A stretch of DNA of 64,000 nt from Escherichia coli (GTDB taxonomy: Bacteria; Pseudomonadota; Gammaproteobacteria; Enterobacterales; Enterobacteriaceae), in assembly GCF_041886205.1 (NCBI RefSeq), contig NZ_CP169029.1, one strand, 5' to 3'. Position numbers and translations under genes: made by a program. The stretch's first letter is position 1. Each line of letters starts with the position of its first letter. Shown here in pieces: positions 24,667 to 26,091 of this stretch. Under the pieces are notes generated by a model. That model ran no database searches. It was not told the origin of the DNA and was given only the letters and a program-made list of their open reading frames with translations.

Positions 24667-24690
24667 CGAATTACCATTCAGGGAGGAATA

Positions 24691-25290
24691 ATGGCTGACT
24701 ATTTTGAAATACGTGCTGATTACAATCAGCACACCATCACGGTTTATCAGGCTTACAATGATGCAATCGCTGACGTCGCCGTACGTAACGGGCGATTTGG
24801 CGCACCTTTTTCATTCAACCGCATGACCTGGATTAAACCCTCTTTTATGTGGATGATGGAGCGTAGCAACTGGGGACTGAAAAAAGATCAACAACACATT
24901 CTCGCAATCCGAATCAAACGCACCTTCTTTGATACATTGCTGGAACAAGCGGTGCTAACCACGCCGGAAGCCCATGTGTATCCACATGCAGGCATTTGGG
25001 AAACGTTATTTGCACAAGCAAATGTGTATGTTCAGTGGGATCCCGAACGCAGTATAAATGGTAAAAAACTGGAGCACCGATCATTACAGCTTGGTATTTC
25101 CCGTAACTTGATCAGTCAATTTAACGAAGACGCCATTGTTGCCATTGATGATCTGACTCCGCTGGTGCGAAAGTGTCATAACCTTTTGATAAACGGTAAA
25201 ACAACACAGGCGAAATCCTTCCTGCCGCCAGAAAAAATTTACCCTGTTAGTGCAGCTGCGAGAAAGGCTTTGGGAATGAAAAATTCCTGA
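24691..25290 (+). CDS. Hypothetical protein, 199 aa, not present at this position in K-12; possibly a DUF4291-like family (uncertain)
   Basis: ATG preceded by GGGAGG only 25 nt after apaH stop; clean 199-codon ORF; conspicuous motif RMTWIKPSFMWMMERSNWG. The family guess is from memory only. Confidence 0.75.
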   Translation: MADYFEIRADYNQHTITVYQAYNDAIADVAVRNGRFGAPFSFNRMTWIKPSFMWMMERSNWGLKKDQQHILAIRIKRTFFDTLLEQAVLTTPEAHVYPHAGIWETLFAQANVYVQWDPERSINGKKLEHRSLQLGISRNLISQFNEDAIVAIDDLTPLVRKCHNLLINGKTTQAKSFLPPEKIYPVSAAARKALGMKNS

Positions 25291-25325
25291 GACAAATACG
25301 CGCCTATTAAGCGGAAAATATTTAA

Positions 25326-25775
25326 GTGCGACAAATCAACACCGGGCTTAATACCAGAGAAATTATTCTGGAAATGATTGACGAAGCAGATGCCCCCCCA
25401 TTTGCTGAGCAGCGGACCTGGCATCGCAGGCGAATCGCTTTTCTATGTGATTGCATCAGCGTTGCTGTCGACTACGGCTTCTTCTGTTCTGTTTCTCAGC
25501 AGTCAATAATGAACATAACCAGGATGGCTGAAGATGTATGGATAATAGAAAGTAAAATGACACAACTCATTGATATCTGGCAACAACTTCAGCGGCTTTA
25601 TCCGCCAAACATTATTCCCTGCACCCAGCAGTTACCCGCTAAAGAATTGCTTGAACTGCTACTTTCCAGTCCTGACGATCTTCGAATAGTTGAAATCCCT
25701 GACATCATCGGTGATGTTTTTGATGACCAAACCTGGATTCGATTATTCAAAAAACACTTTGCTGATATTATCTAA
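25326..25775 (+). CDS. Hypothetical acidic protein, ~149 aa (GTG start; alternative ATG at 25374), accessory
   Basis: Open frame immediately downstream of the 199-aa ORF, AT-richer than flanks, no recognisable family; start uncertain. Confidence 0.55.
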   Translation: MRQINTGLNTREIILEMIDEADAPPFAEQRTWHRRRIAFLCDCISVAVDYGFFCSVSQQSIMNITRMAEDVWIIESKMTQLIDIWQQLQRLYPPNIIPCTQQLPAKELLELLLSSPDDLRIVEIPDIIGDVFDDQTWIRLFKKHFADII

Positions 25776-26012
25776 CTACGATGTGATGTGTAACAATCCA
25801 AAATACATCGCCAGACGATAGACCAAAAAGAAAGTATTTAGCAGATACTCAACATTCTGACTTCTGTACAGAAATAGCAGAGTTTAAAAACTTAAAACTT
25901 CCGGTACTCATTAGAGAAACATCCAGTTTCTTCTGCAAATTCATTTAATGCCGAGATGGCATCCTCGTTTACTTCAGTCCACTGTAGAGTAGCTTGAGGA
26001 TTTAGACCTACG

Positions 26013-26045
26013 CAGTGAGCGCGACTCACAAAATCGCGCTCACTG
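26013..26045. other. Perfect 12-bp inverted repeat (cagtgagcgcga / tcgcgctcactg) with 9-nt loop between the islet and the folA 3' end
   Basis: Read directly; no flanking U-run on either strand, so not a canonical intrinsic terminator. Confidence 0.5.
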
Positions 26046-26091
26046 GTAAAATCAGACGTCTTATCGTTCAATTTGTAGTCATGGCAAAAAC

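Follow-up and report, generated by a model that had tools for sequence, protein, structure and literature searches.

An islet in the apaH-folA hot spot of Escherichia coli is a probable mosaic of conflict-related genes that includes a DUF4291 protein with a predicted ADP-ribosyltransferase-like fold

The 1,425-nt islet that separates apaH from folA in an Escherichia coli chromosome is read here, with moderate confidence, as a mosaic of three conflict-related genes that were separately acquired or decayed in an insertion hot spot, rather than as a single module. On the best reading, these genes are independent of one another and lie mostly on the 'antidote side' of such conflicts. The islet is located in a 64,000-nt stretch of contig NZ_CP169029.1, which is the window analyzed here. 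A first-pass annotation described it as a two-gene islet, potentially an undescribed system with a toxin/immunity or defense flavor, and missed the third coding feature, a ccdA remnant on the minus strand. An undescribed system is not supported as a unit because the two genes do not co-vary, their families are of unequal size, ORF2 is truncated, the site is a published hot spot, the genes already carry RefSeq annotation, and there is no PADLOC match; both proteins are nevertheless functionally uncharacterized so far. The suspected link to biological conflict does hold, given the toxin-like fold of ORF1, the immunity-array relatives of ORF2 and the adjacent ccdA remnant. The features are as follows.

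23818-24666, plus strand: left flank, apaH, at the end of the surA-pdxA-rsmA-apaG-apaH cluster
24667-26091, no strand: the whole accessory islet in the apaH-folA gap, in place of the 77-nt K-12 spacer or an O157-type ccdAB
24680-24686, plus strand: Shine-Dalgarno-like AGGGAGG, 4 nt upstream of the ORF1 ATG, read from the sequence
24691-25290, plus strand: ORF1, 199 aa, DUF4291, ATG start, full-length PF14124 match
25326-25775, plus strand: ORF2, 149 aa, GTG start (alternative ATG at 25374), frame intact in five alleles
25892-26071, minus strand: ccdA remnant, 59 aa, TTG start (RefSeq call: 25892-26029, CcdA-family antitoxin)
26013-26045, no strand: inverted repeat inside the ccdA remnant, its 12-nt arms (26013-26024 and 26034-26045) separated by a 9-nt spacer
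26092-26571, minus strand: folA, right flank, convergent

Much of the anatomy agrees with the initial description. In K-12 (W3110), apaH and folA are convergent neighbors only 77 nt apart, and the similarity of the islet flanks to K-12 and O157 ends at the apaH stop codon and returns some 4 nt short of the folA stop codon. The islet is AT-richer than its flanks (42.8% GC compared to 54-56%; 55.9% in apaH and 53.7% in folA). The first of the two same-strand ORFs starts after a 24-nt gap from the apaH stop codon, behind the reported GGGAGG site, and the extended AGGGAGG is unchanged across five divergent Escherichia alleles. This short gap, together with the strong Shine-Dalgarno sequence and the lack of a terminator, makes the putative co-transcription of ORF1 with apaH plausible, and ORF1 would then rely for its expression on transcription running on from the apaH operon, combined with its own strong ribosome-binding site. 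No promoter or terminator consensus matches in the region rose above shuffled controls, and an Rfam scan of positions 24300-26800 yielded no credible match. A mobile-element origin of the islet was rejected given that no phage matches to it were found. The E. coli 'plasmid' matches are records of 0.4-1.3 Mb that appear chromosome-like; the remaining plasmid matches are an ORF2 fragment captured by IS1/IS26 on an IncFII plasmid and an ORF2-only match on a 69-kb plasmid, which is probably similar.

The islet represents one of the ways in which an E. coli integration hot spot, known to be variable, is occupied. Of 5,426 complete E. coli genomes, 536 (about 10%, with O26 and O111 STEC among the carriers) have the islet in the folA-apaH interval and 2,022 have ccdAB-O157 there; in the remaining genomes, the interval is short or empty. 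In the accounts of Mine et al. (2009) given in PMC3184786, PMC7167474 and PMC7232551, this interval is described as a hypervariable insertion hot spot, and the insertion site of ccdAB-O157 described there is shared with the islet.

The ccdA remnant matches the Pfam CcdA model (E = 9e-8) over the C-terminal half only (model positions 39-71 of 71) and is 45% identical to residues 12-77 of CcdA-O157, with a 14-aa internal deletion. A complete CcdA, with its N-terminal DNA-binding and C-terminal CcdB-binding parts, is not present, the first 11 or so residues of CcdA-O157 having no counterpart. The C-terminal half of CcdA is the region that binds CcdB. As in ccdAB-O157, the ccdA-like gene lies beside folA in the same orientation (80% nucleotide identity over 77 nt, in addition to the similarity of the proteins). 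In contrast to ccdAB-O157, the islet ccdA is reduced at the N-terminus and internally, and ccdB is lacking: a tblastn search of the islet with CcdB-O157 produced nothing better than E = 3. Rather than deriving recently from ccdO157, the islet ccdA is a diverged allele, probably left over from a toxin-antitoxin cassette of a divergent ccd type that formerly occupied the site. The perfect 12-bp palindrome reported in front of folA holds for the arms in this allele, but it is interrupted by the spacer and embedded in the ccdA remnant, 47 nt from the folA stop codon, and the arms match at only 11 of 12 positions in the other alleles compared. The predicted hairpin is stable (folding energy of -24 kcal/mol on the plus strand and -29 kcal/mol on the minus strand); because no T-run follows it on either strand, we do not call it a terminator.

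Judging from sequence conservation, ORF1 is the one clearly maintained gene of the islet, as indicated by its low dN/dS (0.05-0.12, out to dS 0.3), the 55-68% identity to proteins from Listeria, Chryseobacterium and Prevotella, and the 23 invariant columns in an alignment of 50 DUF4291 sequences. The first-pass annotation rightly described one protein as conserved-looking and the other as acidic, and assigned a function to neither; for ORF1, this no longer holds at the family level. ORF1 is a basic protein (pI 9.3) that matches Pfam PF14124 over the full length of the model (E = 2.2e-68, model positions 1-180 of 180, residues 6-184) and resembles other DUF4291 proteins in its motifs and in being a stand-alone protein of about 200 aa. 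This family includes about 7,790-7,800 relatives or sequence clusters and has been reported from bacteria, fungi and some animals. A literature search for PF14124 found no papers, and a survey of Legionella ADP-ribosyltransferases (ARTs) proposed that DUF4291 is an atypical ART-like family, with the reported support for NAD+ binding coming from docking only (BMC Genomics 2025, PMC12522546).

The predicted structure of ORF1 (pLDDT 96) has the ART core fold and, on this model, is toxin-like and closest to RhsP2. Toxins head its structural matches (RhsP2tox, exotoxin A, ParT and TreTu); the closest solved relative, RhsP2 (PDB 7RT7), is only 10% identical in sequence. The link of ORF1 to ARTs is a structural one because no ART came up when the PDB was searched by sequence and by profile with ORF1 and the alignment of DUF4291. 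RhsP2 is a Pseudomonas aeruginosa T6SS effector toxin that ADP-ribosylates the 2'-OH of RNA and is countered by the immunity protein RhsI2 (PMC12340436, PMC11833690). Whereas RhsP2tox forms the C-terminal part of a large Rhs protein, ORF1 is free-standing: the DUF4291 domain begins at residue 6 of a 199-aa protein, so there is no N-terminal carrier domain (Rhs, PAAR, LXG, CdiA or similar). The best 50 AFDB50 matches of ORF1 are 191-414 aa long, almost all of them with a single domain and a length of about 190-280 aa.

The putative active-site motifs would set DUF4291 apart from RhsP2. Under the mapping published in PMC12522546, the DUF4291 motifs QAY, W[IV]K and S-L-Q correspond to the ART motifs; in ORF1, these are Q20-A21-Y22 (each residue at least 90% conserved among the 50 sequences), W47-I48-K49 (W47 and K49 invariant) and the S-L-Q motif with an invariant Q133. 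By this mapping, ORF1 has no canonical His/Arg and no Glu, and a Gln occupies the position of the canonical catalytic Glu, that is, motif III, whereas RhsP2 has an R-Y-E triad and is inactivated by the E1576Q substitution (PMC12340436). A Gln or other residues in the third position are tolerated in some active ARTs, with PARP examples (PMC12522546), and a 2026 bioRxiv preprint on VopU reports in its title mono-ART activity with an H-Y-Q triad. In the mosaic reading, ORF1 is a cytoplasmic, stand-alone ART-fold enzyme that would bind NAD+ or an ADP-ribosyl substrate and function in ADP-ribosylation chemistry without poisoning the host. Its role could be to place a modification on a target, possibly nucleic acid, or else to process or remove one.

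ORF2 is an acidic (pI 4.66), helical protein that belongs, in an N-terminally truncated form, to a tiny zinc-ribbon/helical family without a Pfam entry. Neither ORF2 nor its full-length relatives produced a credible match in Pfam, NCBIfam, PADLOC, PHROGs or PDB sequences, so for this protein the lack of an assignable function stands. At E ≤ 10, the search of PDB sequences with ORF2 recovered only two weak unrelated matches, so ORF2 has no detectable sequence similarity to the chains of known structure, among them RhsI2. The family consists of about 25 members, with only 5 representatives among 1.84 billion proteins, and every full-length relative carries an N-terminal CxxC...CxxC zinc ribbon that is absent from the E. 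coli protein. The single-sequence AF2 model of ORF2 is unusable (pLDDT 43.8). ORF2 retains the family motifs WHRRRI, LLxSPDD and KHF but evolves faster than ORF1 (dN/dS 0.23-0.63). Its frame is open in five alleles up to dS 0.28, where dN/dS is 0.23-0.28, and purifying selection is significant in the most distant pair (Fisher p = 2e-4). Being under weak purifying selection, ORF2 is probably translated. In this allele, the stop codon comes 6 codons early (149 aa compared to 155 aa elsewhere). Two other identities were considered and rejected: KBP_C, for which weak matches in 2 of 17 family members and an E = 0.5 match to the KIF-binding protein in the PDB look like generic helical-repeat noise, and an opposite-strand leftover of ccdB, to which ORF2 shows no similarity.

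Relatives of the islet genes are found in distinctive neighborhoods. A Prevotella homologue that is 57% identical to ORF1 lies inside a cluster that consists of NUDIX/NrtR, two NADAR, ARH, DUF4291, macro-like, ARH, KptA and ARH genes; the ADP-ribose-related neighborhood published for DUF4291 (NUDIX, Macro, ARH and PTS_2-RNA; PMC12522546) is thus also found around an ORF1 relative. Another DUF4291 protein, P0094 (59% identical to ORF1), is encoded alongside Ank, SUKH/SMI1_KNR4 and Imm11-like genes in an array of co-directional genes. Full-length members of the ORF2 family in Bacteroidales are located among Imm43, Imm5, Imm12, Imm44, PoNi and SUKH genes. In three of these loci (L016, L018 and L019), a Phage_integrase gene is followed by arrays of 33-35% GC with Imm families, and these loci showed all the tested features of the rAID-1 arrays, which are low-GC, co-directional and located behind a tyrosine recombinase (Ross et al., bioRxiv 10.1101/471110), and for which the published criteria also ask for >44% identity to the B. 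fragilis recombinase. Unlike these arrays, the islet has no recombinase, has two co-directional genes of which a single, truncated one belongs to such a family, has 43-45% GC, and resides in an enterobacterial chromosome. The ORF2 family also differs from the immunity families of rAID-1 in having no Pfam match and no known cognate toxin. No PADLOC-DB v2 defense model matched ORF1, ORF2, the full-length relatives or the ccdA remnant.

These neighborhoods speak for an alternative that we consider rather unlikely, namely, that the islet is a set of orphan antidotes, in which the DUF4291 protein would be an enzyme or decoy acting against ADP-ribosylating toxins, ORF2 an orphan immunity protein, and the CcdA fragment an anti-addiction factor against CcdB. 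Consistent with this possibility are the immunity-type array around P0094, the position of the Prevotella gene among the ADP-ribosylation erasers NADAR, ARH, macro-like and NUDIX, the occurrence of ORF2-family genes in rAID-1-like arrays, the retention of the C-terminal half of the CcdA model, and the finding that PARG-type erasers can serve as immunity to RhsP2 (PMC11833690). The argument is, however, one of guilt by association: arrays of this kind include genes unrelated to immunity as well (GNAT and deacetylase genes in L049), and other DUF4291 contexts look metabolic or housekeeping. Furthermore, an ART-fold protein that reverses ADP-ribosylation is not known, the nearest precedent being the chemistry of Tpt1/KptA. 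Given the truncation of ORF2 and the 14-aa deletion in the ccdA remnant, both of these genes may be inert.

Less probable still is a genuine toxin-immunity or type II toxin-antitoxin pair made up of ORF1 and ORF2, in which ORF1 would be an active ART toxin, perhaps RNA-targeting like RhsP2, that ORF2 would neutralize by binding. Several observations point in this direction and count against the mosaic reading. All the nearest structural relatives of ORF1 are toxins, and ORF2 shows what is expected of the immunity partner of an effector: it is acidic whereas ORF1 is basic, lies directly downstream, belongs to a family found amid immunity genes (Imm43, Imm5, Imm12, SUKH and PoNi), and diverges much faster, with 48% identity between Escherichia and Superficieibacter compared to 81% for ORF1. 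The toxin-then-immunity gene order is conserved in these two genera; in Superficieibacter electus (L029), both genes are present along with a PRiA4_ORF3 gene, and ORF2 is full length (218 aa), with the zinc ribbon in place.

An obligate pair is nonetheless unlikely because each gene is found at the locus without the other in relatives: Escherichia sp. MOD1-EC7003 (L028) has an intact DUF4291 gene without ORF2, and an enteric scaffold (L006) has an ORF2 homologue without DUF4291. The former is the single genome with DUF4291 alone at the locus, and it could carry an inactivated allele. Among the DUF4291 loci L030-L054 (Listeria, Prevotella, Streptomyces and others), the only ORF2-family matches are the E. 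coli copies, and ORF2-family genes occur without DUF4291 in L011-L022 as well as in L006. The consistent adjacency expected of a cognate immunity gene is therefore not observed, and the DUF4291 family is about 300-fold larger than the ORF2 family. In strain H9Ecoli, an IS1 separates the two genes with both frames intact, so ORF1 is not lost when the pair is split. The missing delivery domain of ORF1, the missing zinc-ribbon N-terminus of E. coli ORF2, the invariant Gln133 at the published position of the catalytic Glu (E1576Q inactivates RhsP2), and the cross-phylum identity of 55-68%, which is unusual among toxin domains, argue in the same direction. Two of the outcomes that the first-pass annotation had set against its own proposal were found in part. 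In the mosaic reading, ORF2 would be a 5'-truncated survivor of a family that is otherwise seen in orphan-immunity arrays, and would not be needed by ORF1.

A bolder extension, to which we give similarly little credence, is that DUF4291 represents a novel type of ART-fold enzyme, structurally derived from RhsP2-like toxins that ADP-ribosylate RNA, whose part in the ADP-ribosylation of nucleic acids would be protection or processing; Tpt1/KptA, in which the ART fold serves repair chemistry, offers an analogy. The islet would then be a collection of orphan antidotes that guards the cell against ART toxins, addiction through CcdB and contact-dependent effectors. Least probable is that only ORF1 is functional and that ORF2 and the ccdA ORF are remains of pseudogenes in which stop codons have yet to arise, with the apparent constraint reflecting noise or recent ancestry: the loss of the family's N-terminal third, the weak GTG start with a poor Shine-Dalgarno sequence, the variable end point and the dN/dS of up to 0.63 in close pairs would fit such decay of ORF2, as would the truncation and internal deletion of the ccdA remnant, but the frame of ORF2 is intact in the five alleles, its dN/dS at the larger distances is significantly below 1, and its motifs are kept.

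For genome annotation, the apaH-folA interval is to be treated as layered hot-spot debris and not as a new defense system. Its first gene nevertheless places DUF4291, a large, well-conserved and uncharacterized family, in a tractable organism, apparently tied to a housekeeping operon, and natural comparators exist in which the site is empty (K-12) or occupied by ccdAB. The ORF2 family is one more unannotated candidate immunity family, which links Enterobacteriaceae to the immunity arrays of Bacteroidales. With an RNA-targeting ART toxin as the closest solved relative and an invariant Gln at what the published mapping gives as the Glu position, DUF4291 poses a concrete question, namely, whether these proteins write, read or erase ADP-ribose on RNA.

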